Source: Escherichia phage vB_EcoM_WFC. From it: a DNA stretch of 64,000 bases. The position numbers and the translations under genes are program-made. How positions within the stretch are numbered: the first letter of the stretch is position 1; each line of letters begins with the position of its first letter. Of this stretch, positions 1 to 64,000 are shown piece after piece. The stretch is from sequence record NC_048195.1; one strand, given 5' to 3'. Below the pieces are notes generated by a model that was not told the DNA's origin, did not search any database, and was given only the letters and a program-made list of their open reading frames with translations.

Positions 1-34
1 GCTAGACGTTTCAACTTCCAACTGCACCATCGAT

Positions 35-286
35 TCACAGTTCATCTCCAGATTGCAAAATAAGACCCGCATAGAGGATTGCCAAAGCCAAAGGTGCACC
101 ACCACCAGCCTCTCTATTCTCTTTGATTTGAAGAGTATCCTTAAGGAATTGCAACTGAACGTTGAATTCATTTTCAATTCCAAGAACTCCAGCCAATTCT
201 TTTACAGAATCTGCATATGCCTTGTCTAGCAATTCTTTTGGTACTGTTAAAGTCAATTCATTTGCCATTTTCTTTCCACTCCACAA
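35..286 (-). CDS. hypothetical protein (83 aa)
   Basis: Minus-strand ORF at window start, co-directional with two neighbours; no recognisable motif. Confidence 0.3.
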   Translation of the reverse strand: MWSGKKMANELTLTVPKELLDKAYADSVKELAGVLGIENEFNVQLQFLKDTLQIKENREAGGGAPLALAILYAGLILQSGDEL

Positions 287-479
287 ATGTGCTGCCGCTT
301 GTTTCTCTATTTAGCAGGTATCTGCCGCGCATTCCATGAAGGCTGAATTCAACCGTCGATGGATTAGATTTTGAAAGCCATATAGGTTGTCCGTCGAATG
401 GACCGCCTATGCATGTGTATTTAGCTTTTGGCTCACTCCTTTTGGGCCGTTTTGCCCGCTCTTTGATTGATAGTCTCAT
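258..479 (-). CDS. hypothetical protein (73 aa)
   Basis: Minus-strand ORF; its stop region overlaps the next ORF by 29 nt, so the true start may be internal. Confidence 0.3.
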   Translation of the reverse strand: MRLSIKERAKRPKRSEPKAKYTCIGGPFDGQPIWLSKSNPSTVEFSLHGMRGRYLLNRETSGSTFVEWKENGK

Positions 480-694
480 CAGTCTTCACCTTGAGATTCC
501 AGACAAGTAAGGACAAGCCACGTCATCGGAAGAATCAAAACCAGAGAAATGAGGGACCAGATAGACCAGCACAAGATGACAGACTTGAATGTGTGAACGT
601 CGCCAAACGCAGCAGTAAAACAGAATCCCATCACAAATGCAATAGCGGTGGAATGGTTGTCTATGGCTTTTATGGCACGGTCGATGAGTTTCAT
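479..694 (-). CDS. small membrane protein, two predicted TM helices (holin-like topology)
   Basis: 71 aa with two hydrophobic stretches (AIAFVMGFCFTAAFG and ILCWSIWSLISLVLILPMTWLVL). Confidence 0.4.
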   Translation of the reverse strand: MKLIDRAIKAIDNHSTAIAFVMGFCFTAAFGDVHTFKSVILCWSIWSLISLVLILPMTWLVLTCLESQGED

Positions 695-768
695 ATTACC
701 TCCGGTTTTGAGTTAATATGATTATAACGCAGAGTCTCAGAAAGGCAAACTTTTTGTGAATTTTAATC

Positions 769-795
769 AAAAAAATGGCCAGAAAAAATCTGGCC
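769..795 (-). terminator. putative intrinsic terminator on the minus strand
   Basis: Inverted repeat GGCCAG/CTGGCC (777-782 / 790-795) with a 7-nt loop; the A-run at 769-775 is a U-run on the minus-strand transcript. Confidence 0.35.
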
Positions 796-841
796 GAAAG
801 ATCACCCTTTATCCACTACTAAGCTGGAATCATAATTTTAC

Positions 842-871
842 TTGATATAGCTTGTACAAGCAAACTATAAT
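842..871 (+). promoter_or_regulatory. sigma70-like promoter candidate upstream of the large terminase gene
   Basis: TTGATA (842-847), 18-nt spacer, TATAAT (866-871); the -10 abuts the ATG at 872, implying a leaderless start or a downstream start codon. Confidence 0.3.
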
Positions 872-2332
872 ATGAATAAAATATTAACACATAATTGGAA
901 ATTCATGTACCAGTTGAATCCTGCTTTAAAAGAAGTCTGGAAGACAAAAGCGCGATACAAAGTAATATACGGCGGTCGTGCATCTTCCAAATCGCATGAT
1001 GCCGCTGGTTTTGCTATTTATTTGGCGGCAAACTTCAAATTAAAATTCCTTTGCGTTCGACAATTCCAGAACAAGATTTCTGAATCTGTATATACTCTAT
1101 TAAAAGATAAAATAGAGATTTCTGATTTTAAAGATGAGTTCAATTTATTAAAGAACTCTATCGAGCATAAAAGAACTAAATCTGAATTTCTATTTTACGG
1201 TATCGCACGTAACGTTGATGAAATTAAATCAACGGAAGGTGTTGATGTTCTTTGGCTGGAAGAAGCGCACGCACTTACTGAAGAACAGTGGGACATTATT
1301 GAGCCGACAATCCGTAAAGAAGGGTCAGAAATATGGATCATCTTTAACCCTGATGAAGAGGCCGATTTCGTCTACCAAAACTTTGTTATGCGACCGCCGA
1401 AGAATGCCATAGTTAAAAAGATAAACTGGCAAGACAACCCATTCTTGTCGCAAACAATGCTGGATGTTATCGCAGGCATGTACGAGCGCGACCCGAAAAA
1501 GGCAGAGCACGTTTATGGCGGCGTGCCGAAGACTGGCGGCGATAAATCTGTAATCAACCGTGCATTCGTTAAGGCCGCTCTTAATCTCCACAAACACCCT
1601 ACGCTGGGCTGGAGTTTGTCAGGGTCTAACCGTATAGGCTTTGACGTAGCGGACGATGGCGACGACCTTAACGCCACTGCATTCGTCACAGGAAACGTAT
1701 TGCGCGGCATCAAGACGTGGGAAGGTCTGGAAGATGAATTGTTGAAATCGGCAAGCGGAGTTTGGAAAGATGCGCTTACATTTGGCGCTTCTATAACTTA
1801 TGACGCCATCGGTGTCGGCGCTTTTGCTGGTTCAAAATTTGATGAACTAAACGAGTATGCAATACATGAAAATCCATCATTTCCAAGAATCGAATTTAAT
1901 GCGTTCAACGCGCAAGGGTCTGTTGATGATCCTGATGACGTTTTTCTTGAGCTACCACACGTTGAAATACTCAATAAAGACCATTTCGCAAACATAAAAG
2001 CGCAAAAGTGGACTGAAATTGCAGAGAGATTCAGAAAGACATACGAATATGCAACTGGGCAAGCCGTATATCCGACTGATGAATTGATTTCAATCGACAC
2101 CGATGGTATACCGGAACTTGGGATTCCAGCTTGGACTACTGAAGAGATTGAGACGTTTCTTTTTGAGATGTCAGCGCCGCGCAAAGATACGTCTGTTCTT
2201 GGCAAGTTCAAAGTTGAATCTAAAAAGGATATGGCAAAGCGTGGAGTCAAATCACCTAACAAAGCGGACGCAGCAATCATGGCATTGATGAAACCAATCG
2301 TTGCAGCATCCGGCTTCTTCTCTAACCTTTAA
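872..2332 (+). CDS. terminase large subunit
   Basis: 486 aa; N-terminal Walker A-like GGRASSKS about 35 residues in, followed by a nuclease-like C-terminal half; first gene of the structural block. Start could instead be the ATG at 905. Confidence 0.9.
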   Translation: MNKILTHNWKFMYQLNPALKEVWKTKARYKVIYGGRASSKSHDAAGFAIYLAANFKLKFLCVRQFQNKISESVYTLLKDKIEISDFKDEFNLLKNSIEHKRTKSEFLFYGIARNVDEIKSTEGVDVLWLEEAHALTEEQWDIIEPTIRKEGSEIWIIFNPDEEADFVYQNFVMRPPKNAIVKKINWQDNPFLSQTMLDVIAGMYERDPKKAEHVYGGVPKTGGDKSVINRAFVKAALNLHKHPTLGWSLSGSNRIGFDVADDGDDLNATAFVTGNVLRGIKTWEGLEDELLKSASGVWKDALTFGASITYDAIGVGAFAGSKFDELNEYAIHENPSFPRIEFNAFNAQGSVDDPDDVFLELPHVEILNKDHFANIKAQKWTEIAERFRKTYEYATGQAVYPTDELISIDTDGIPELGIPAWTTEEIETFLFEMSAPRKDTSVLGKFKVESKKDMAKRGVKSPNKADAAIMALMKPIVAASGFFSNL

Positions 2333-2335
2333 CAA

Positions 2336-2575
2336 TTAAAGCATTCCGTGCTGAAGGTCTAGTTTTCTTGCAGCAAATGACCTGGCACGGAATCGCTTAC
2401 CCGCTCTTACTGCCTGCCGAATCTTCTTTTGCATACACTTACGGTCAAAATCGTTGCGGTCAACGGCTTCGAGCAAATCCCGACGCAAAGCACCTAGTGT
2501 CGCCTTTTCGGATAATTCTACGCCCAGCGCGGCTGCAACGTCTTTCAAAACATCGAGTTCGGTTAACGTTCTCAT
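2336..2575 (-). CDS. small basic protein with N-terminal helix-extension-helix (Rho_N/SAP-like) motif
   Basis: 79 aa; LTELDVLKDVAAALGVEL pattern then Arg/Lys-rich tail; second gene of a two-gene minus-strand unit inside the + strand structural block. Confidence 0.4.
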   Translation of the reverse strand: MRTLTELDVLKDVAAALGVELSEKATLGALRRDLLEAVDRNDFDRKCMQKKIRQAVRAGKRFRARSFAARKLDLQHGML

Positions 2576-2988
2576 TTGATGATCCCCTTGATGTCTGATT
2601 CTGCCATAAAGATTGGAGTGCCGCCGCCAGGAACAATCGAGCGCGTTACTTTGTCGAACATATCGTTCTCTTCAACTTGAATACGATAAAATTTATTTTT
2701 GGATGAAGATGGGCACAATCCAATAAATTTACCAATGCCGCGAACGCATTCATCTTCAAAGTATACTGTTTCACCTTGAATGGATTCGATGTTTTCAACC
2801 GGATACACCTTGCGACCTAAAAGCCATTCATCCATGGTCGCCTGCAACACGTTTCGCGCATCCAAAATCCAAGGGTCAACTGTGGCACCTTCATATCGCG
2901 CAGCAGTGGCTTTTGCCAGCTCTTCATATTCGCATACGTTTACTACTTCGCCTTGATGAAGGACGACAAATACAATTGTTGTGCTCAT
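2572..2988 (-). CDS. hypothetical protein (138 aa)
   Basis: Overlaps the downstream ORF by 4 nt (operon-like); AT-rich promoter-like region at 2989-3117. Confidence 0.4.
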   Translation of the reverse strand: MSTTIVFVVLHQGEVVNVCEYEELAKATAARYEGATVDPWILDARNVLQATMDEWLLGRKVYPVENIESIQGETVYFEDECVRGIGKFIGLCPSSSKNKFYRIQVEENDMFDKVTRSIVPGGGTPIFMAESDIKGIIK

Positions 2989-3150
2989 TTCAATCTCCTT
3001 TCGTTTGGTTAACTAAAATATAACTCAAAATGATACAAAAGCAAAATATTTTATGAACTATTTATGATTACTATACATATCATTTGCTTACAAACACATG
3101 AATATTTATAATATAGATTGATTCCCTTTCACTGTCAGGTGGCGTTAACA

Positions 3151-5526
3151 ATGAAAATTCTTGGCATAAAACTCTGGGAGAAGACGCAACCAGAAGCCGA
3201 ACCAGCGGAGATGCCGCCAGGCGACCCATTGGCACCGTTTGAACGCCTGGAAAGGCGCGGCAGCGGTCAACGCTGGGATAAGACCGAAAGCAACCGCCCG
3301 ACCTTTAAAACCGTTGATGACTTTCCTTTATATGAGCCTGATATCAACGGGGACGGTGTTGCAATCATCAAAGGTCGCTCAGTAGATTCAGCAACCGTAT
3401 CCAAAAAAGTTATGGATAATGCTTTGAAGAACATCAGTTCAGAAGGGCAGGTTAATCCATACACAGTACCTATTCAGTTGCAAAACTGGTACTTATCGCA
3501 ATCATTTATCGGATATCAAGCTTGCGCCATCATCGCGCAGCACTGGCTGGTGAACAAGGCTTGTTCCATGGTAGGCCGCGATGCGGTCCGTAAAGGCTGG
3601 GAAGTCAAATCCAGTTCTGAGTCCGAATTATCAGTGCAGGCCAGCGAACGCCTAAAGCAAATTGATAAAGAATTTAATATCAAAGAGCACTTAGTTGAAG
3701 CCGAACGATTCAAAAATATTTTTGGTATCCGCGTCATCATATTTGATGTGCGTAGCGATGACCCAGAATACTACAGTAAACCTTTTAACATTGATGGTGT
3801 GACAAAGGGGTCTTATAAGGGGATCATTCAGGTTGACCCTTATTGGATGATGCCATTTCTGACGTCTGAAAACACCGCCGACCCTGCTTCACAGCACTTT
3901 TATGATCCAGAATACTGGGTGATCAGCGGACAACGTTATCATCGCAGCCACCTCATCATATTGCGCAACGATGAGCCAGCTGATATTCTTAAGCCGACTT
4001 ACATCTACGGCGGCATTCCTCTAACTCAGCAGATTTATGAACGCATCTATGCCGCTGAACGTACCGCTAACGAAGCACCATTGTTGGCGATGTCTAAACG
4101 TACAACGACACTACGGACCGACGTTGACAAGGCGATTGCCAATGAGCGGTCTTTTGCCGAACGCCTGATGATGTGGATTAAGTACCGCGACAACTATGCT
4201 GTTAAGGTACTTGGCCAAAAAGAAGAAATGGACCAGTTCGACATCAACTTGTCAGACTTCGACAGCATCATCATGAACCAGTACCAGCTGGTGGCCGCAA
4301 TCGCAAAAGTTCCGTCGACCAAACTGCTTGGGACTTCGCCAAAAGGCTTTAACGCCACTGGTGAATTTGAGATGGTCAGCTATCACGAAGAGTTGGAAAC
4401 GTGCCAGCAGCATGACCTGACAAAAATTCTCGACCGCCATTACAAAATCCTTCTCAAATCAGAAGGGGTGGAAGTCGACGTTAAGGTTGCATGGGAACCA
4501 GTTGGCTCACTTACTGCTACTCAACTTGCAGAAATCAACGACAAGCGAGCTAACACTGGCAAAACTCTCATTGATGCTGGCGTCATTTCTCCTGATGAAG
4601 AGCGCGACCGCATCAAAGACGACAAAAACAGCGGTTACAACCGTCTGCCGGAAGATGCAGCAGAAGAAACCCCAGGGATGTCTCCAGAGAATATGGCATT
4701 GCTTGGCAAGTCTGCTGGTGAAGTCCTGCAAGGTAAGGCTGATATTGAACAGGCAAAAGCTGATGTCGTTAAGATGGGCGGCCAGTTCTATAGCGAGACT
4801 GGTATTATGCCAGAAGGTGCCGCGCGTGGTGAGTTGGCGGAAAACCCTGACAGAGCACCTGTCGAAATTAACATGGACGATACCGATGATGAATCAAACC
4901 ATCAGGTTGATGTCCTAACGCAGTTGAAAGAAGGTCTGGAGGGTATTGCGGATTACTACCTGAAAGAAGGTCAGGATGTGGATTTTGACCCTCAAAAAGA
5001 TTCACGGTCGGTGCAGCCGTCTACCCTTCCAAGCGTCAAAGGTAATGTCGTAAACTTACGACACAACGTTGGCGAGATGGACGCAGCATCATTACCTAAG
5101 ATGAAGTTGCACGGAATGATTCTTGGGATTGAGAATCCTCGCAACAGCATCCGTAGAGGAAATAGCCTTGACGGTGAATGGGCAGTCAAGATGCCGCACC
5201 ACTACGGATTCATCAAAGGCACCAAGGGCGCGGACGGCGATGAAGTCGACTGCTTTGTTGGCACAAATCTGAAGTCGCCGAAGGTCTTTATCGTGAACCA
5301 AAACGATAACTACTCTGGCGAGTTCGATGAACACAAGTGCATGCTTGGATTCGATTCAGCAGAAGAAGCAAAAGAAGCTTATCAGGCATCATTTGGTAAC
5401 GGTTGGAACGGATTCGACTCAATCCACGAATTAGATGTGAACTCATTCAAAGAGTGGTTGAAGGGTGATTGCTCTCAAGCATACGGAGCACTCAATAATC
5501 CTACTAATTCACCGAAGCAAGGTTGA
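3151..5526 (+). CDS. portal protein with C-terminal inorganic-pyrophosphatase-like domain
   Basis: About 790 aa immediately after the terminase gene; ATG at 3151 is preceded by AGGTGG (the ORF track starts at TTG 3118). The final ~120 aa contain HYGFIKGTKGADGDEVDCFVG, which fits the family I pyrophosphatase signature D-[SGDN]-D-[PE]-[LIVMF]-D-[LIVMGAC]. Confidence 0.65.
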   Translation: MKILGIKLWEKTQPEAEPAEMPPGDPLAPFERLERRGSGQRWDKTESNRPTFKTVDDFPLYEPDINGDGVAIIKGRSVDSATVSKKVMDNALKNISSEGQVNPYTVPIQLQNWYLSQSFIGYQACAIIAQHWLVNKACSMVGRDAVRKGWEVKSSSESELSVQASERLKQIDKEFNIKEHLVEAERFKNIFGIRVIIFDVRSDDPEYYSKPFNIDGVTKGSYKGIIQVDPYWMMPFLTSENTADPASQHFYDPEYWVISGQRYHRSHLIILRNDEPADILKPTYIYGGIPLTQQIYERIYAAERTANEAPLLAMSKRTTTLRTDVDKAIANERSFAERLMMWIKYRDNYAVKVLGQKEEMDQFDINLSDFDSIIMNQYQLVAAIAKVPSTKLLGTSPKGFNATGEFEMVSYHEELETCQQHDLTKILDRHYKILLKSEGVEVDVKVAWEPVGSLTATQLAEINDKRANTGKTLIDAGVISPDEERDRIKDDKNSGYNRLPEDAAEETPGMSPENMALLGKSAGEVLQGKADIEQAKADVVKMGGQFYSETGIMPEGAARGELAENPDRAPVEINMDDTDDESNHQVDVLTQLKEGLEGIADYYLKEGQDVDFDPQKDSRSVQPSTLPSVKGNVVNLRHNVGEMDAASLPKMKLHGMILGIENPRNSIRRGNSLDGEWAVKMPHHYGFIKGTKGADGDEVDCFVGTNLKSPKVFIVNQNDNYSGEFDEHKCMLGFDSAEEAKEAYQASFGNGWNGFDSIHELDVNSFKEWLKGDCSQAYGALNNPTNSPKQG

Positions 5527-7455: not shown

Positions 7456-7496
7456 ATTCATCGGCAAAGGATTGCCGCGAGTTTTATACGTATAAT

Positions 7497-7760
7497 GACG
7501 TATCATACGTATCAAGTAAGTTATTGTTTTCAAAAGAATCTTACGGATGATACGGATGATACGCGTTGCCGCCGTACTATATAGGAATTCAAATAAATTA
7601 ATTTAAAATTATATATCTAATTTAATTTTATTTTTTTATAAACTCTTATATATGAAAAGTATCCGTATCATCCGTATCATCCGTAGCACACCAGTGATAG
7701 CGCGGCTTATACACCGATACGGATAAAAATACGCCTCATTTTATCCGTATCATCCGTATC
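7497..7760. repeat. iteron-like CCGTATCAT repeats in both orientations flanking an AT-rich core (region A)
   Basis: ACGTATCATACGTATCA (7497-7516), CTTACGGATGATACGGATGATACG (7540-7563), ATCCGTATCATCCGTATCATCCGTA (7661-7685), TATCCGTATCATCCGTATC (7742-7760); AT-rich core about 7575-7650. Homologous to region B at 60018-60347. Confidence 0.6.
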
Positions 7761-7818
7761 ACACTAATAAAGGCGCGGCTATATCGGTTGTTATACATAT
7801 TCAAACCATAATTATTGT

Positions 7819-17613: not shown

Positions 17614-18173
17614 TGGACTTCGTTTCGATTCTGCTTTCTGGTCAATCTTTGGCCATAACGAATGAGTCAACAGGTCTTCCTGTCTGGACAAGGCTTTCAC
17701 CTGTTTCTGCAGAAATAACATCCCCAGCAGAAACAACTCAATTCCCTCTTGCTGGTACAGCCATGCAGGTTGTCGAAGTATCAAGCACGTCATCAGTAAG
17801 CAATTTACAGGCGGCAAAGGTTGTAATGCCAGCCCATATGGCGTTAAACGTAATTTGCAATGACCAGTCTACAATTGAAAATATCATAAATTCATTTGAT
17901 GATGACGAAGTCACATTTTCAATAACTTCTCGAAGCATCATTGCCAGTAAAATGTCGATGTCCGACGTTGAAATAACCCAGTCAGAAGAAAACTTGAATG
18001 GAGTCTCAATAGTAATAACTTTCGAGCAAACGTCATTTAGCATTCAAGGAAGCTTCGACCCTAAACAATCTGCAGACGAATCATCAAATGGTGTTGCCAT
18101 TAAAGAACCAGTCAGTTTGACTACAACTGTGAGTTCGTTATATAATAAAATAAAATCAACAGTAGGAATATAA
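17613..18173 (+). CDS. hypothetical tail protein (186 aa)
   Basis: Start overlaps the upstream stop; tail array. Confidence 0.45.
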   Translation: MDFVSILLSGQSLAITNESTGLPVWTRLSPVSAEITSPAETTQFPLAGTAMQVVEVSSTSSVSNLQAAKVVMPAHMALNVICNDQSTIENIINSFDDDEVTFSITSRSIIASKMSMSDVEITQSEENLNGVSIVITFEQTSFSIQGSFDPKQSADESSNGVAIKEPVSLTTTVSSLYNKIKSTVGI

Positions 18174-41188: not shown

Positions 41189-42064
41189 CTATTTATTGAA
41201 ATTAATATTATGGGTGTTGACAAGACGTTCACACATGGCGCTATAAACACCATCATCGTGTATCGAGTCTTCATGCTTCAGGCCGCTGATTGCGAAGCGT
41301 GTAAGCTTGACAATCTTAAGCTCGAACAGGTGCCACATGTGGTAGTCTTCCGGTGTCTTCAACGTTACGCCATTAGGGAACAACACCTGCATAACCTGAC
41401 CTACCATCACAGCGTTATCGCCATAAACGGCATTGCGCTCACGGAAGGTCGCGGCCATCGCATCAAGAATATCAGCAGCGGTTGCTGGGGCTTGTTGTTC
41501 AACTTCAACAAGTTTAGTCTCTTCTTTCCCTGTTGCACTTGGATCAACTGCTAATTGTTGCACCACTTCACCTGCCTTGCAAAGATTAAATGTAAAGGCG
41601 ATTTTATTTTGCGCCATGGAATTATAATGCAAAGCTTCTTCTTGCATCCGCGCGAGTACGTCTTGTCTATCTTCAAATACGTTGATTATTCGATAATCGC
41701 CGTGTCGCAATACATACGATAACCATGCAGATTTCATAACAGTTGATGGACGCTTGTCGCCATGTTCTCTCATCTTGATTGTGAATTCATCAAAAGGGAA
41801 AACGTTGTCCAGACGTTCAAAAGTGACTTGTCTGTATTTTTCTGGTCTTGCAGTCCAATATTCAACCGCCTCACCGCGAAGTGATGCCGTCTCTACTGCT
41901 GACGCAATGTTAGGATAGAACTGATCATAACCAATGCCGCTGTGGTAATCATCATAGTCGGACAACGGGCCTGCCACCCTGATACGGTCTAAGCGCCAAC
42001 GGTCATCAAACAGAGTTCCGTCAAGGTCGAATACGTTTAAGATTTGGTTATTTTTGATACTCAT
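41189..42064 (-). CDS. HAD-superfamily phosphatase fused to an unknown C-terminal domain
   Basis: 291 aa; N-terminal FDLDGTLFDD (DxDxT) motif; C-terminal ~130 aa unassigned. Confidence 0.65.
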   Translation of the reverse strand: MSIKNNQILNVFDLDGTLFDDRWRLDRIRVAGPLSDYDDYHSGIGYDQFYPNIASAVETASLRGEAVEYWTARPEKYRQVTFERLDNVFPFDEFTIKMREHGDKRPSTVMKSAWLSYVLRHGDYRIINVFEDRQDVLARMQEEALHYNSMAQNKIAFTFNLCKAGEVVQQLAVDPSATGKEETKLVEVEQQAPATAADILDAMAATFRERNAVYGDNAVMVGQVMQVLFPNGVTLKTPEDYHMWHLFELKIVKLTRFAISGLKHEDSIHDDGVYSAMCERLVNTHNINFNK

Positions 42065-58794: not shown

Positions 58795-59192
58795 TCAATC
58801 GATTTAACTGCATCGTCAACAAGGGGATGGCGGTCAATGAGGATGGTCCTTGGATTCACTATGAGGACTATGAATCACTGCTCAAGCTTAATGAGTCGCT
58901 AACAAAAGAGATTGAGCAATACCGCGAGCGCATCAAAGCCGCTGAAGATGTTATCAAGCTTTTTAGCGAGGCTGTTGAGAAATACAAGGAGCGCAACGTA
59001 CCGATTAAGGAGGAAGCGTGGACCGTGTGGTTTGGTGGTGAGAATCCGGTGCCTGGGAAGATGGTTGAGTTTGAATTACTCAACGGTTATAAATCAAAAG
59101 GTGCTGTTCCTTCGGATAGTTTGACATGGGATAAAGTCACAAGCCCGACTGGTGCAAAGATTGTTGCTTATCGGGTCGTTAAGGAGGGGTGA
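58791..59192 (+). CDS. hypothetical protein (133 aa) with C-terminal WxGGxNPVPGK module
   Basis: GGAG RBS; C-terminal WTVWFGGENPVPGKMV ... YRVVKEG. Confidence 0.45.
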   Translation: MINRFNCIVNKGMAVNEDGPWIHYEDYESLLKLNESLTKEIEQYRERIKAAEDVIKLFSEAVEKYKERNVPIKEEAWTVWFGGENPVPGKMVEFELLNGYKSKGAVPSDSLTWDKVTSPTGAKIVAYRVVKEG

Positions 59193-59725
59193 TGGGTAAC
59201 GATGCAGGATGGGGCAAGCCGCGATACTCAAAACTTGCCCACTACTTTGACAACGGCGAGCAAATCAGCTTGTGCGGTAAATTCAACAAAGGCAATACAG
59301 AGTTGACCGATGCTCAAGAAATGGAATCAAGTTTTACAATTGGTGATTGCTCTAAGTGCAGAAAGGCATTATATGAGTTATTAACTCTAAGGGGATTGAA
59401 AGCGGCAAAATCAAGGGATGAATGGGTCATCAACGTCTGTGAAGGGAATCCAGAATTAATGGATGAATTGCTGAAAACAGATGCCGTTAATGCCATTTTT
59501 AAAAGGCATTATAAAACTTGTATGCGTTACAAGATGAATGATAATATTATTTTTATGGTATTATCTTATTCAAGGAGCACAATGGACGTCAAAAAGCTTC
59601 GACAATATCGTCACAAGGTAATGTGTGAATTGCGCCGTTTAGGAGTGACTGTTGATAATAATGTCATTAAAACGGAGTTAAAGAAGCGTGATAAAAGGAA
59701 TGGTGACTGGAAGGTCAGCAGATAA
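59192..59725 (+). CDS. hypothetical protein (177 aa)
   Basis: AAGGAGG RBS; last gene of the early array. Confidence 0.45.
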   Translation: MGNDAGWGKPRYSKLAHYFDNGEQISLCGKFNKGNTELTDAQEMESSFTIGDCSKCRKALYELLTLRGLKAAKSRDEWVINVCEGNPELMDELLKTDAVNAIFKRHYKTCMRYKMNDNIIFMVLSYSRSTMDVKKLRQYRHKVMCELRRLGVTVDNNVIKTELKKRDKRNGDWKVSR

Positions 59726-60017
59726 AGAACGTTGATTTGTGTGTTTTGAAGAATGGAATGTGTGCAATGGGTCGCTTTATGCGGCCTTTTGTTGTTTGGG
59801 TCGTGTTTTGCGATGGAATAATTATGAGGTTGTGTTTTATTTATTAATTGTGCGGAAATATTTAGAAATATATATAAACAGGATTGTTAATATTTTAATA
59901 GTGTATGGCTATTGGTCCGTGGTGTTCGTTAGATTCTATCTATGGATTGGATTTTCTTGGGTCGTGAAACGTGGTTTTGAACACATTTGATACGCCTAAA
60001 ATACGGTTAAAAATTAA

Positions 60018-60347
60018 GCGTATCATGGCTGCAGGCCGCGCCGTTCCTGGATTCCTATTTTCAAAAGTGGTACACCCTTACGTCATGATACGTCATGGTT
60101 TTCTATCCGTAAGAGTGTACAGCCCTTGCCGCGCCTGGCTTGTACATTAATCTTACGGATGATACGGATAAAACTGAGCATCGTTATATATAGAATTCGA
60201 AAAATTAATTAACTCCATTTTAAAAACATTTATATTAATTTTTTTCATATCCTCATACTTATGTTAATTTATATATTTAACGTATTATCCGTAAGATATA
60301 AGTAAAAACAAAGACTTGCGGCAATACGGATGATACGTCATGATACG
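60018..60347. repeat. iteron-like TACGGATGATACG repeats flanking an AT-rich core (region B)
   Basis: CGTCATGATACGTCATG (about 60080-60097), CTTACGGATGATACGGATA (60152-60170), ATCCGTAAG copies near 60104 and 60287, AATACGGATGATACGTCATGATACG (60323-60347); AT-rich core 60180-60280. Confidence 0.6.
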
Positions 60348-60512
60348 CTTCGACCAGCCAGCAGCGGCTAAGTCATTGATTTGCATAACAAGCGGCAAAA
60401 GGGATGGATTTCTTTTATACGTATCAAACAGTACACCACGCACCACGGTCCGCAATCCACGCAGCATTATGATTTGTGTACTTTTATAGCCATAATGAAC
60501 ATCAATCTGCAC

Positions 60513-60541
60513 TTGAATATAATGTCCATCCATTGTATAAT
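60513..60541 (+). promoter_or_regulatory. sigma70-like promoter upstream of the TerS-like gene
   Basis: TTGAAT (60513-60518), 17-nt spacer, TATAAT (60536-60541). Confidence 0.45.
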
Positions 60542-60561
60542 TCACACTATTAATTTGCACT

Positions 60562-61050
60562 ATGGGATTTTGCACTATGAGTCAAGATTATGTAGCGATG
60601 CCTGAAGACTTTGAAGACCCGCGATTCGCAGAGCACAATCAGGCTTTATTCGATGAGTTCATTGACCTTGTTATTCAGGGCCATGACATGCGCGCAGCTT
60701 TTGCACTAGTATTTGGAATGGAAGTTGCAACGGATAACTACACTGGCCAGCGAATCCTTTGCACGCAACGCAATCCATACTACAAGATGCGCTTCAAAAA
60801 GCGTATGGAAGAGATGCCACTCAAGGATTTGTGGAGCGTAAAAGGTGCAATTCACAATTTGGTCAAGCTTGTGCGTGATCCAGAAGTCGCGGCGTCAGCC
60901 AAGCTTAATGCTATTCGTGAACTGAATATCATCTACGGCATCACGATGATTGATGAAAACGGCAATAGTAAAATGGGCCGTTCCATGGACGATTTCTACA
61001 AGGATTTCGGAGAGGCGGCCAAAGAAGGCGAGCAATTTTCCCGCCACTAG
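60562..61050 (+). CDS. putative terminase small subunit (HTH-type)
   Basis: 162 aa; GHDMRAAFALVFGME ... QRILCTQRNPYYKMRFKKRMEE and later KLNAIRELNIIYGI resemble small-terminase patterns from memory; alternative ATG at 60577. Confidence 0.45.
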   Translation: MGFCTMSQDYVAMPEDFEDPRFAEHNQALFDEFIDLVIQGHDMRAAFALVFGMEVATDNYTGQRILCTQRNPYYKMRFKKRMEEMPLKDLWSVKGAIHNLVKLVRDPEVAASAKLNAIRELNIIYGITMIDENGNSKMGRSMDDFYKDFGEAAKEGEQFSRH

Positions 61051-61052
61051 CC

Positions 61053-61448
61053 AATTTGCACTATAAAACGGCCCTAGAACACATTTTCTCCACTTCTAGG
61101 GCCATCGGTAATACGACGGGGAAGGTTGCAACCATAAACGCGTTAGAAAGTGTATTATTATAAGTCATCTTTTAGTCACTTTACGTAACAATTTACGACC
61201 TTCAACCGTCCAATCGAACGACTCCACCAGCAGATTCGCACTATAACCTAAGACGATGCGCCCTTTCTCGTTATCGACCCGCCAACAAGTCTCGAATAGC
61301 ATTCGATTTGCACTATTAACTATTGCCGCAACTCGCGTAGGATAAGCGCAATTTGCACTATGGTCGTAAAGGGATAAGGTGCGACCACTTCCGATGGACA
61401 ACGTAGCGATGAGAATAAGCGTATTCATAAGCCACCAATTTGCACTAT
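61053..61448 (+). repeat. array of same-orientation (A)ATTTGCACTAT motifs
   Basis: Copies at 61053-61064, 61233-61244 (TTCGCACTAT variant), 61305-61316, 61350-61361, 61437-61448; further copies at 60552-60563, 60569-60578, 61734-61745, 61748-61759, 62021-62032. Confidence 0.6.
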
Positions 61449-61478
61449 GAAAAGCGACCCCGAAGGGCCGCCATTCGA

Positions 61479-62105
61479 TTAGATAATCTGGAAGGTATAG
61501 GACTTGTTGCCGAACTCGAAGTTCAAGCGTCCAGCTTCTTTAAGCTTCATGCGGAAGCGAATGTGCTTGCTATCCGGTAAGCCCAGCGCGGCGAACGCTA
61601 CGCGGACCGATTTGAACTCGCCTACACCCTCGACCATAACGCCGTTACGGGTAAGACGCTTTTGCGCCACTTCCTTATTATCCCAACTTTTTGCAATGCC
61701 TTCGCTATTCGAACGGCGATGGGAAGGAGTTCCATTTTGCACTACGCAATTTGCACTATCGTTTAAACCGCTCTTAACGAAGGCTTCATACTCTTCGTCG
61801 GTCATCGCGTCGAGTTCTTCCTGCGTCGGCTCGGCCTTTTTAACGACCGCACGCGCCTTATGCGTTTTTACATCGCTGGACACTTCCTCGCGAGACTTCG
61901 CGTCGGGGATGGGCGATTCGTTGGACGGCTCATCGAGCGCGTTTAAGGACTCGATTAACGCTATTACGCGAGTCTCGGCGGTCCGGCGGTCCGCAAATTT
62001 TTTAATCGGCTTCGAACCGGAATTTGCATTATAAAATGCAACGAGGTCGGCGGTCTTAGTTGCGATAACGTCGCCGCTAGTCGAGAAACGATTTAAGCTA
62101 ACCAT
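61479..62105 (-). CDS. hypothetical protein (208 aa)
   Basis: Minus-strand ORF in the CpG-rich block; second gene of an operon driven from about 62570. Confidence 0.45.
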   Translation of the reverse strand: MVSLNRFSTSGDVIATKTADLVAFYNANSGSKPIKKFADRRTAETRVIALIESLNALDEPSNESPIPDAKSREEVSSDVKTHKARAVVKKAEPTQEELDAMTDEEYEAFVKSGLNDSANCVVQNGTPSHRRSNSEGIAKSWDNKEVAQKRLTRNGVMVEGVGEFKSVRVAFAALGLPDSKHIRFRMKLKEAGRLNFEFGNKSYTFQII

Positions 62106-62185
62106 AATGAACTCCTATTTGTTAGGGCGCTAGGCGCGAAAGAATTTTATTAAAGCGCCGCGCACGACGCTCTAAAAATCCTCTC

Positions 62186-62500
62186 TTACTCTTCGTCATC
62201 TTCGATTAATTCGAGGGCGAAGGCGTAAGCTTTGCTATCGTAATTAACTAAAACGGCGAGTTCGAACTCGTTAATAAACGCCGTTTTACCGCATAAATTT
62301 AATTCCGCATCGACTTCGAAGAATCCGTTTTCGTCGCGCTCTAAGCGAGAAGCAGCGAGTTGCTCGATTACCGTCGCGTCGTTAATTTCTTCGCCTAAGC
62401 GAACGCCGGAGAATTTCGCGAGAATTTCGCCGTAAGTAAGCGTAACGCCCTGGACTTCGGCGGTTGCGTTTTCGAGGGTAAAGCGGGTAACGATAGCCAT
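62186..62500 (-). CDS. hypothetical acidic protein (104 aa)
   Basis: AGGAG RBS upstream on the minus strand; CpG-rich codon usage. Confidence 0.45.
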   Translation of the reverse strand: MAIVTRFTLENATAEVQGVTLTYGEILAKFSGVRLGEEINDATVIEQLAASRLERDENGFFEVDAELNLCGKTAFINEFELAVLVNYDSKAYAFALELIEDDEE

Positions 62501-62568
62501 AATAAACTCCTAGTTGGGAGAGGCGTTAACGACCTATTCGTTAACTCATCCCGTCCCGATATGAGTAC

Positions 62569-62596
62569 ATTATAATATAGTGTAGAAAAAAGTAAA
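62569..62596 (-). promoter_or_regulatory. sigma70-like promoter (family copy 1, minus strand)
   Basis: On the minus strand: AAAAAGTGC TTTACT, 16-nt spacer containing TACACT, TATAAT. Confidence 0.5.
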
Positions 62597-62640
62597 GCAC
62601 TTTTTCGATAAAAATGCGATAAATTATTTTATCTTTTTTC

Positions 62641-62668
62641 TTTACTTCTTCGTACACTCGCGTATACT
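62641..62668 (+). promoter_or_regulatory. sigma70-like promoter (family copy 2)
   Basis: TTTACT (62641-62646), 16-nt spacer TCTTCGTACACTCGCG, TATACT (62663-62668). Confidence 0.5.
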
Positions 62669-62724
62669 TGTTTATATCGAGACGGGCGATGGCCCTTTCT
62701 TCTACTAGCATCGGGAGCTTTATT

Positions 62725-63027
62725 ATGACTACTTTAATCTCTTCCATCCTTACTTACGACGAAGACCGCTTAACCGTTCGCTCTCTTATCGCCGCCGTTA
62801 ACGCGGAACTAGAATCTAGCGCCATTAAGGTCCGCGCGGTCGCCTTCATCGGCCTTTCCTTCGACGATATGAAGTATGCCGAACGTAGCGCCATCCGCTT
62901 CGCGAAGACCGACGACGAAGCCGTTACCCTTATCGAGACGGTTACGCCGCGCGGCGAAGCGTTAATTATCGTCGAGTATATCGACGTAGAAGGCGATAAA
63001 TCTTATAAACATTTTATCGCAGAATAA
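62725..63027 (+). CDS. hypothetical protein (100 aa)
   Basis: ATG 62725 preceded by GGGAG; the ORF-track TTG start at 62668 lies inside the promoter; CpG-rich. Confidence 0.45.
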   Translation: MTTLISSILTYDEDRLTVRSLIAAVNAELESSAIKVRAVAFIGLSFDDMKYAERSAIRFAKTDDEAVTLIETVTPRGEALIIVEYIDVEGDKSYKHFIAE

Positions 63028-63039
63028 CGAAAAAAGTGC

Positions 63040-63068
63040 TTTACTTCTTCGTACACTAAGACTATAAT
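63040..63068 (+). promoter_or_regulatory. sigma70-like promoter (family copy 3)
   Basis: AAAAAGTGC TTTACT (63040-63045), 17-nt spacer TCTTCGTACACTAAGAC, TATAAT (63063-63068). Confidence 0.5.
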
Positions 63069-63135
63069 GTTTTATATCGAGAGGGGATGAGGTAGCGAAT
63101 AGGTCGCTACCCTCCCGACTAACTAGGAGAATATT

Positions 63136-63426
63136 ATGATTACTTTAGCCGCTATCCGTTCCGCTCGCGTCGAAACTTCCGAAAACTCTAACGTATTTGG
63201 CGAAAAACTTAAAAACGTTTATCTTTTTAACGTAGATGCGACTATCGAGGAGCTTCATAGTCCTATCGATTTTAGCGAATTTACGGAACTCGAAGAGGAA
63301 GATATTTCTACCTTCCGCGTTACTATCGAAGGCAAGGTTTATTTTGCTACGGAGTTCGGCGGCGAATATCTCGCGGTATCCGAAGGCGAAGGCCGTTACT
63401 CTTTCTTTAAAATCGTTTCCTTATAA
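63136..63426 (+). CDS. hypothetical acidic protein (96 aa)
   Basis: AGGAG RBS; CpG-rich; followed by a terminator. Confidence 0.45.
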   Translation: MITLAAIRSARVETSENSNVFGEKLKNVYLFNVDATIEELHSPIDFSEFTELEEEDISTFRVTIEGKVYFATEFGGEYLAVSEGEGRYSFFKIVSL

Positions 63427-63446
63427 TACCCATCCGTTACTAATAG

Positions 63447-63470
63447 GCCGCGCTTAGTCGCGGCTTTTCT
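63447..63470 (+). terminator. intrinsic terminator
   Basis: GCCGCG CTTAGT CGCGGC hairpin followed by TTTTCTT. Confidence 0.6.
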
Positions 63471-63592
63471 TCGTCCCTATCTCGATGCGCTTCTCCGCGA
63501 AAACTCCTTTATCCTTCCCTTCGTCGTCGCATAATCTTCGTCGAGATGCGCCTTAGTTCGCATAACAGGTATTACGTTAAATGGAGAACATC

Positions 63593-63668
63593 GCGTAAGT
63601 CGTTGTTTTATATAGACACCTATATCGGACCGTTAGCGAGGGTCGCGTAAGTCGTTGTTTTATAAAGG
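63593..63668. repeat. direct repeat ATCGCGTAAGTCGTTGTTTTATA (2 copies)
   Basis: Two copies about 53 nt apart in a ~550-nt stretch with no convincing ORF; further short direct repeats (AATCATTAGCYTTCGAAT) near 63789-63854. Confidence 0.4.
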
Positions 63669-64000
63669 CGCAAAACTTTCCCTTCGTTCCGAACTAAAAC
63701 GAGGAATATGCCGACCCTTCGCCCGAAAATAGTACGCATGCGATATTACCGACATCTAGAATAATCCCTCCCGATATTATTACGCGCTCAATCATTAGCT
63801 TTCGAATCATTATGCTGCATACTATTATGCGCCAAATCATTAGCCTTCGAATTGTAACGCTGGAAACTGTAACGTCGATTGATTATTGCGTTCGTGTGGT
63901 TTTTAGGACATGGGTCTTTTGGTGCGTTTTGCTACTTGATGGAATTTGCAGTACACTAATCAAAATACGACACATTTGGTCCACTAACTTTTCAAAGAAA

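Follow-up and report, generated by a model that had tools for sequence, protein, structure and literature searches.

In phage lambda, cosB consists of three 16-bp sites (R1-R3) of mixed orientation, lying within about 120 bp beside cosN and the Nu1 gene; they are bound by the small terminase gpNu1 and co-vary with Nu1 specificity. In SPP1, P22 and Sf6, the pac recognition DNA overlaps or adjoins the gene of the small terminase (TerS). Such pac sites, that of P1 included, measure 20-270 bp and belong to headful phages, and in P1 (seven TGATCA/G hexamers) and SPP1 they are built of short repeated words. Phages T7 and T3 cut exact repeats from concatemers, with junction signals (pacB, and short repeats beside a 160-bp repeat) that associate short repeated words with the terminal repeat. 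A 2026 review holds that the beginning and the end of packaging in phages with long, exact terminal repeats are not yet understood, and that even T7 and T5 lack a resolved mechanism (PMC13595956). We describe here an array of short same-strand DNA sites around the TerS gene of Escherichia phage vB_EcoM_WFC (hereafter WFC; record NC_048195.1), inside the direct terminal repeat (DTR) of its genome. The stretch analysed, called the window, is the final 64,000 nt of WFC, and window position 60217 corresponds to WFC base 1. BLAST placed the region in Wifcevirus, a genus of E. coli myoviruses with genomes of ~68 kb.

The WFC locus resembles lambda cosB in that several short sites lie just inside the packaging-start end, the small terminase is the first gene on the chromosome, and the sites are found between or over the cut site and this gene. 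It differs in that the putative array sites number 10-14, share one orientation, extend over 1-1.5 kb, are invariant across lineages and lie at least 320 bp from the cut, in a DTR phage. The array has in common with pac sites its position over and beside the TerS gene and its short repeated words, but JG024, a headful relative of WFC (Pbunavirus), has no array. WFC is like T7 and T3 in the exact repeats cut from concatemers; however, its repeat is 3.7 kb long and carries genes, TerS among them, and the proteins are unrelated.

Twelve copies of the motif were found in WFC, all on the + strand, from 60540 to 62032, that is within the left 1.8 kb of the DTR, and the first of them is 323 bp inside the physical left end (Table 1). 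An earlier inspection of the DNA by eye (the sequence-only reading) had listed a one-sided array around a TerS-like gene. Every copy on its list is present, and one more, inside TerS (60699), had been missed; the weak variant TTTGCATAAC at 60381 does not belong to the array. Copies 5 to 9 are spaced by 180, 72, 45 and 87 nt. A search of the 64 kb for TTTGCACTAT with at most one mismatch gave 12 matches, 11 of which fall in 60554-62032, all on the + strand, whereas the sole match elsewhere is at 41624 on the - strand. This bears out the claim that the array is one-sided and confined to the locus. The whole-window count is by itself barely unusual, 12 being reached in 2 of 100 shuffles. The clustering is far above chance, with 10 exact GCACTA cores in 1.3 kb for 0.10 expected (Poisson P = 3e-17). 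Avoidance of the motif in the rest of the genome was considered and rejected, as its depletion relative to composition is explained by the rarity of sub-words. Among 13 distinct Wifcevirus genomes, copies 1-9 vary less than their flanks: 5 of 99 columns are variable in the copies and 169 of 1,163 in the flanks (5% versus 14.5%, p = 0.006).

Same-strand arrays around TerS are present in seven lineages, with 7-14 copies each (mean ~10.6). Besides WFC, these are Kyle (a Pantoea phage, Kylevirus), Pantoea phage PA1 and four metagenomic contigs (L027-L030). All 74 sites of the seven arrays are on the TerS strand, between -110 and +1180 from the TerS ATG, and the arrays are located 0.3-1.8 kb from the left genome end. 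Pooled, the 74 sites yield the consensus rATTTGCACTAy, and positions beyond this 12-mer are uninformative. In Kyle, whose TerS is 41-43% identical, 14 GCACTA were found on the TerS strand at 477-1478 of the DTR, and only five elsewhere on that strand in 69.5 kb (genome-wide P = 1.6e-24). PA1 has 13 GCACTA cores, and the four contigs, with TerS 47-69% identical, have 10, 9, 7 and 11. Between array-bearing lineages as a whole TerS is 41-69% identical, the surrounding DNA cannot be aligned and copy positions turn over. The array is conserved in number, strand and location, but its exact positions are not.

No array was found at the TerS-homolog loci of E217, JG024, Spe5P4, PCSE1, Gekk3-15, FoX7 and BcepF1. 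In Salmonella phage PCSE1, a weak same-strand set of 5-6 copies of TTGC(C/G)(C/G)TA(T/C) was observed at 294-3078, around and downstream of the TerS homolog; this TTGCSSTA set is possibly a diverged form of the array. A scan of viral contigs for paired motifs returned real arrays in Wifceviruses alone and none in unrelated phages, the other matches being chance, tandem repeats or the palindromic operator of an unrelated phage. The distribution of the array is limited to the clade in which DTRs are documented; the headful Pbunavirus and five other relatives lack it. In the searchable literature, the motif turned up in no phage context, only in unrelated primers.

Inspection of the TerS coding sequences revealed that most copies inside the gene are Ala-Leu dipeptides written GCA-CTA, at lineage-specific positions. 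Thirteen of the 18 Ala-Leu dipeptides in TerS genes of array lineages have this form, compared with 1.4% expected (P = 7e-21) and with none of three in non-array TerS; CTA accounts for 4.9% of the Leu codons in large WFC genes. In several lineages, a motif copy even takes in the stop codon of TerS (…CAC-TAA). A coding artefact is ruled out as the origin of the array: selection works on the DNA itself, even within coding sequence.

The DTR is directly visible in the record, since WFC 1-3784 and window 60217-64000 are the same sequence at the two physical ends. In WFH, the same genes are annotated at both genome ends; the repeat of WFH ends at ~63919, and the WFC record carries it 81 nt further, to 64000. 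The Mansfield genome has a PhageTerm-predicted repeat_region at 1-3673 (3,673 bp) with the same first base as the WFC repeat. Terminal repeats of ~3.7 kb were given for WFC and WFH by Korf et al. (2019); the paper on the synthesis of vB_Eco4M-7 contains no data on termini. The Kyle repeat is 3,603 bp and starts 356 bp upstream of TerS, with the same geometry as in WFC. Many stand-alone contigs of ~3.4-4.4 kb that carry the 208-aa gene next to TerS were also noticed in public assemblies, consistent with a double-coverage terminal repeat that assembles separately in many samples.

The physical left end (60217) falls inside the AT-rich palindrome of a boundary element made of inverted repeats (Table 1). 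Every lineage has this left-boundary architecture, each with its own repeat unit, so that the boundary repeats, unlike the array motif, co-vary between lineages. Published long reads of the headful JG024 start at 59,376. This point belongs to a boundary repeat element of the same kind and precedes TerS by 601 bp. From 59,376, the next XbaI sites of JG024 are at 14,627 bp rightward and 20,954 bp leftward, and the rightward distance agrees with the published pac fragment of ~15 kb. Therefore, the family packages from just upstream of TerS, rightward through TerS. There is no GCACTA array at this JG024 locus. Since JG024 starts packaging without it, the array is not a generic initiation site but a trait of those phages of the family, as a clade, whose terminal repeats are exact.

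These comparisons bear on the proposal, made in the sequence-only reading, that the array is a pac-type packaging site. Part of it stands. As with pac and cosB sites, the array is beside or within the small-terminase gene in all seven lineages and it adjoins the packaging-initiation end, being 323 bp inside the left end of the DTR, at a place whose homolog in JG024 is the packaging start. The phage is, however, a DTR packager and not a pac/headful one, and a role of the array as the packaging-initiation site is not borne out, as the physical end is upstream in another repeat element and JG024 starts packaging without an array. The label "pac site" is better replaced by "polar array inside a direct terminal repeat".

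The gene taken for TerS-like is, judged by homology and predicted structure, a true small terminase of the E217 type. Its open reading frame matches the E217 TerS (PDB 7UXE) with a phmmer E value of 6e-34. The AlphaFold model has 7UXE as top Foldseek match (prob 1.0), followed by the TerS of PaP3 and NV1, and in this monomer model the N-terminal helical domain is confident (predicted local distance difference test, pLDDT, 83-92). The Mansfield annotation also names this gene TerS, and most annotators place its start at ATG 60577. It has no Pfam match, and its PHROG family is one of unknown function. Both in E217 and in WFC, the TerS gene is distant from TerL (window 872-2332 in WFC). At residues 64-65, where helix 56-65 ends, the TerS of the array clade carries a basic (Q/K/R)R that replaces E-S. 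The E217 protein is a decamer that displays N-terminal helix-turn-helix domains (PMC9611059).

Overall, we take the array to be a probable signal at which a protein is loaded for the packaging of the DNA or the processing of its ends. The specific reading that we put forward, with a probability of about 0.4, is that of a polar terminase-loading signal specific to DTR-type packaging, putatively read by TerS. About ten single asymmetric 12-bp sites (rATTTGCACTAy), pointing in one direction over the first 0.3-1.8 kb of the DTR and centred on TerS, would be read by the terminase, most likely through the helix-turn-helix ring of decameric TerS. One or several rings would load on the array, which would mark the DNA as repeat and set the direction of packaging. 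The array would adapt a terminase that is headful in the Pbunavirus relatives to the making of exact terminal repeats. The cut itself would be specified by the separate element 320 bp upstream. As a side effect, TerS may throttle its own synthesis via the three copies at the promoter-proximal region and start codon. Reading by TerS is supported by the tight linkage of the array to TerS and to the packaging-start end, by a site size that suits a single helix-turn-helix domain, by a copy number (7-14) near the TerS subunit number, by the correlation of the array with DTR packaging, and by the clade-specific basic residues at the TerS helix end. A bolder extension, which we hold to be rather doubtful, is that the array is a polar signal defining the long terminal repeat. 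The motor, or TerS riding along with it, would read the sites one way, a second passage would arm cutting at the right-boundary element ~2 kb on, and gain of the array would have made an exact-DTR cutter of a terminase that was headful like that of Pbunavirus.

Several observations weigh against loading by TerS. The sites of small terminases usually co-vary with TerS, as between lambda and phage 21. No covariation of the motif with the TerS DNA-binding domain was found among the array lineages: the motif is invariant, yet TerS is only 41-66% identical, and its helix-turn-helix region, including the putative recognition helices, is variable apart from the basic residues. A distinct, lineage-specific repeat element flanks the real cut site and is also found at the JG024 packaging start, so that this boundary element is a more conventional candidate for the TerS target. 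With its 1-1.5 kb, the array is far longer than known pac or cosB sites. It has no helical phasing (pooled Rayleigh p ~0.5 for seven arrays); the Kyle array alone is weakly phased (p ~0.03-0.05), a signal that is gone on pooling. The three distal copies, correctly reported in the next gene by the sequence-only reading, are poorly conserved among Wifceviruses and dispensable in some genomes, two being without them. Finally, Chi sites are interspersed among the motif copies of five lineages out of seven, which points to DNA-end metabolism.

Chi (GCTGGTGG) is like the array motif polar, invariant across phages, and selected for density and for orientation relative to the DNA end, not for position. 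The - strand carries Chi arrays a short way in from the left end of the genome, in the orientation that acts on RecBCD entering there, with 9 sites in 1.8 kb in Kyle (P = 3e-16), 7 in PA1, 7 in L028, 5 in L030 and 2 in L029. The single Chi of WFC is likewise oriented for RecBCD arriving from the left end. These sites would stop RecBCD entering from that side and so spare most of the repeat for strand invasion. The pairing of the array with oriented Chi shows that the left side of the repeat is a specialised DNA-end module. Because of this interleaving, a role in DNA-end processing or recombination is a serious rival to terminase loading: another conserved phage or host factor may read the sites at the left end, either for end protection or for recombination of terminal repeats into concatemers alongside RecBCD and Chi. 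We regard this as possible. The array sites are over-represented and fixed in orientation relative to the DNA end (74 of 74), and the invariance of the motif across lineages resembles that expected of a host-dictated or highly conserved reader, as for Chi. Both kinds of site keep to the left portion of the DTR, and at least 1.6 kb of the repeat remains free for strand invasion. But the two are separable, since full arrays occur with a single Chi in WFC and with none in L027, while Spe5P4 has Chi without an array. There is no fixed geometry between Chi and motif, save for one conserved composite at the TerS 3' end. GCACTA differs from Chi in sequence, lies on the opposite strand and is confined to one 1.5-kb stretch and, to our knowledge, it matches no known Chi; nor did the scan of viral contigs find the array in unrelated phages.

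Other functions were weighed against terminase loading. The sites may be operators of a phage transcription regulator, possibly TerS itself, which would act on them as a repressor of its own gene and keep the DTR genes silent. In WFC the predicted TerS promoters are directly upstream of copies 1-3, and copies between predicted -10 boxes and the TerS ATG number three in WFC and five in L027; E217 is harmed by excess TerS, and an unrelated phage uses TTTGCAC half-sites as repressor operators. Yet copies are lacking at the start of TerS in Kyle and PA1, most copies are within coding regions or antisense to genes, distant from any promoter, and sites of one shared orientation whose positions turn over are not what is expected of operators, which are normally fixed relative to promoters. 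This explanation is unlikely. Distinctly unlikely is a set of replication-origin iterons to which an initiator or primase of the phage would bind, an alternative which the sequence-only reading had named together with a partition or centromere-like site. Direct repeats of short words in a single orientation are indeed typical of plasmid and phage origins, an AT-rich region lies 300 bp upstream of the array, primase genes are upstream in the family synteny, and the primase of phage P4 uses dispersed 8-bp sites. The spacings, 10-390 bp, are however neither regular nor helical, the array is spread over 1-1.5 kb largely within genes, and the repeats on either side of the AT-rich region belong to another family. 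Pfam, NCBIfam and PHROGs searches of the DTR proteins revealed no initiator gene. A partition or centromere-like site fits poorly as well, no partition gene being present. Promoters for the host polymerase or a phage-modified one are most improbable. The copies are strictly strand-specific, and CACTATA is similar to T7-type promoters between -7 and -1; but conservation is limited to ~12 bp without another element at a fixed distance, short of the two elements or at least 18 bp of a promoter. The Kyle copies end in C and not T, most copies would fire antisense into - strand genes, and a scan for sigma-70 promoters and terminators gave no coincidence with the copies.

Two - strand genes follow TerS. 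The "430-nt gap" described downstream of TerS in the sequence-only reading is not empty, as it contains a conserved gene for a protein of 87 aa. This gene is present in all array-bearing lineages and was undetected in six non-array relatives. The x-S-A-N tripeptides of its product are the antisense reading of copies 6-8, and a single such position is conserved. As an exported protein, this product was rejected as a reader of the array. The 208-aa gene adjoins TerS across the whole family, array-less relatives included, and is convergent with TerS in WFC, Kyle, E217 and JG024. Homologs in or near the TerS locus extend from Wifcevirus to Pbunavirus, Carpasinavirus and Serratia phages; the C-terminal 75 residues are best conserved, and the retrievable homologs are all at least 98% identical. 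Searches of the DTR proteins in Pfam, NCBIfam and PHROGs returned nothing informative beyond TerL, and Rfam had no match on 59800-64000.

Further elements were seen at the repeat boundaries. Paralogous ATACGGATG elements occur at 7480-7770 and 60080-60345, with inverted 9-bp arrays on each side of a ~100-bp AT-rich spacer; the latter contains the physical left end, and the former is in an intergenic gap between head genes. The same two-locus pattern, with units of their own, is found in Kyle (GGTTATT at 78-171 and 17676-17956) and in JG024 (GTAATTTGG at 59114-59454 and 13204). It suggests a co-evolving DNA-binding protein that acts at both places. In Kyle, L028 and L029, the right-boundary AATCATTAGCYTTCGAA element has likewise kept its place close to the right limit of the DTR, and it is a third conserved element of the DTR. 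A conserved AGTACACTAATCA is located ~30 nt past the DTR boundary in WFH and Kyle (window 63941-63972). Within the DTR, an inverted duplication of ~150 bp (62482-62629 and 63007-63153) carries strong promoter-like sites, TTTACT-16/17-TATAAT, that face outward, to the - strand gene block and to two + strand DTR genes.

Table 1. Features of the array locus (window coordinates, except for the Chi arrays of other genomes)
Feature	Position	Strand	Description
Right DTR copy of WFC	60217-64000		3,784 bp; identified by identity to WFC 1-3784
Left-boundary element	60140-60307		27-nt inverted repeats 60140-60166 / 60281-60307 around AT-rich palindrome; 9-bp unit ATACGGATG
Two overlapping sigma-70-like TerS promoters	60496-60541	+	TGAACA-16-TATAAT and TTGAAT-17-TATAAT; predicted by consensus scan
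Copy 1	60540-60550	+	ATTCACACTAT; degenerate, 2 mismatches; invariant across 14 Wifcevirus genomes
Copy 2	60553-60563	+	ATTTGCACTAT
Copy 3	60568-60578	+	TTTTGCACTAT; final bases are part of TerS ATG (60577)
Small terminase TerS	60577-61050	+	157 aa; first gene within DTR
Copy 4	60699-60709	+	TTTTGCACTAG; within TerS, encodes Ala43-Leu44 as GCA-CTA (rare Leu codon)
Copy 5	61054-61064	+	ATTTGCACTAT; 4 nt past TerS stop, abuts hairpin 61070-61103
87-aa gene	61165-61428	-	small predicted exported protein; signal peptide, two conserved Cys
Chi	61224-61231	-	GCTGGTGG; single site of WFC, 3 nt upstream of copy 6
Copy 6	61234-61244	+	ATTCGCACTAT; perfect ATTTGCACTAT in 10/14 genomes
Copy 7	61306-61316	+	ATTTGCACTAT; "NSAN" position, sole copy with position conserved across lineages
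Copy 8	61351-61361	+	ATTTGCACTAT
Copy 9	61438-61448	+	ATTTGCACTAT; abuts terminator hairpin of 208-aa gene
208-aa protein	61479-62105	-	WFC_00110; function unassigned
Copy 10	61735-61745	+	TTTTGCACTAC; absent from 2/14 genomes
Copy 11	61749-61759	+	ATTTGCACTAT; absent from 2/14 genomes
Copy 12	62022-62032	+	ATTTGCATTAT; degenerate, poorly conserved
Right-boundary element	63774-63863	+	45-bp tandem duplication with AATCATTAGCYTTCGAA
Chi arrays of other genomes	Kyle 255-1972; PA1 2648-4220; L028 323-1824; L030 411-1836; Spe5P4 4487-4937	-	

The array offers a concrete, conserved DNA element for the study of long exact-repeat packaging, under selection strong enough to override codon choice in the terminase gene. 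The repeat that holds it has as its first gene a small terminase, one homolog of which is structurally solved, and rebuilding from synthetic DNA is already feasible in this phage group (PMC11074155). The close headful relatives, which lack the array, offer a natural contrast in which to seek the cause of exact cutting by a terminase, and knowledge of such cis signals is useful for the engineering of these fast-growing, therapy-relevant phages.

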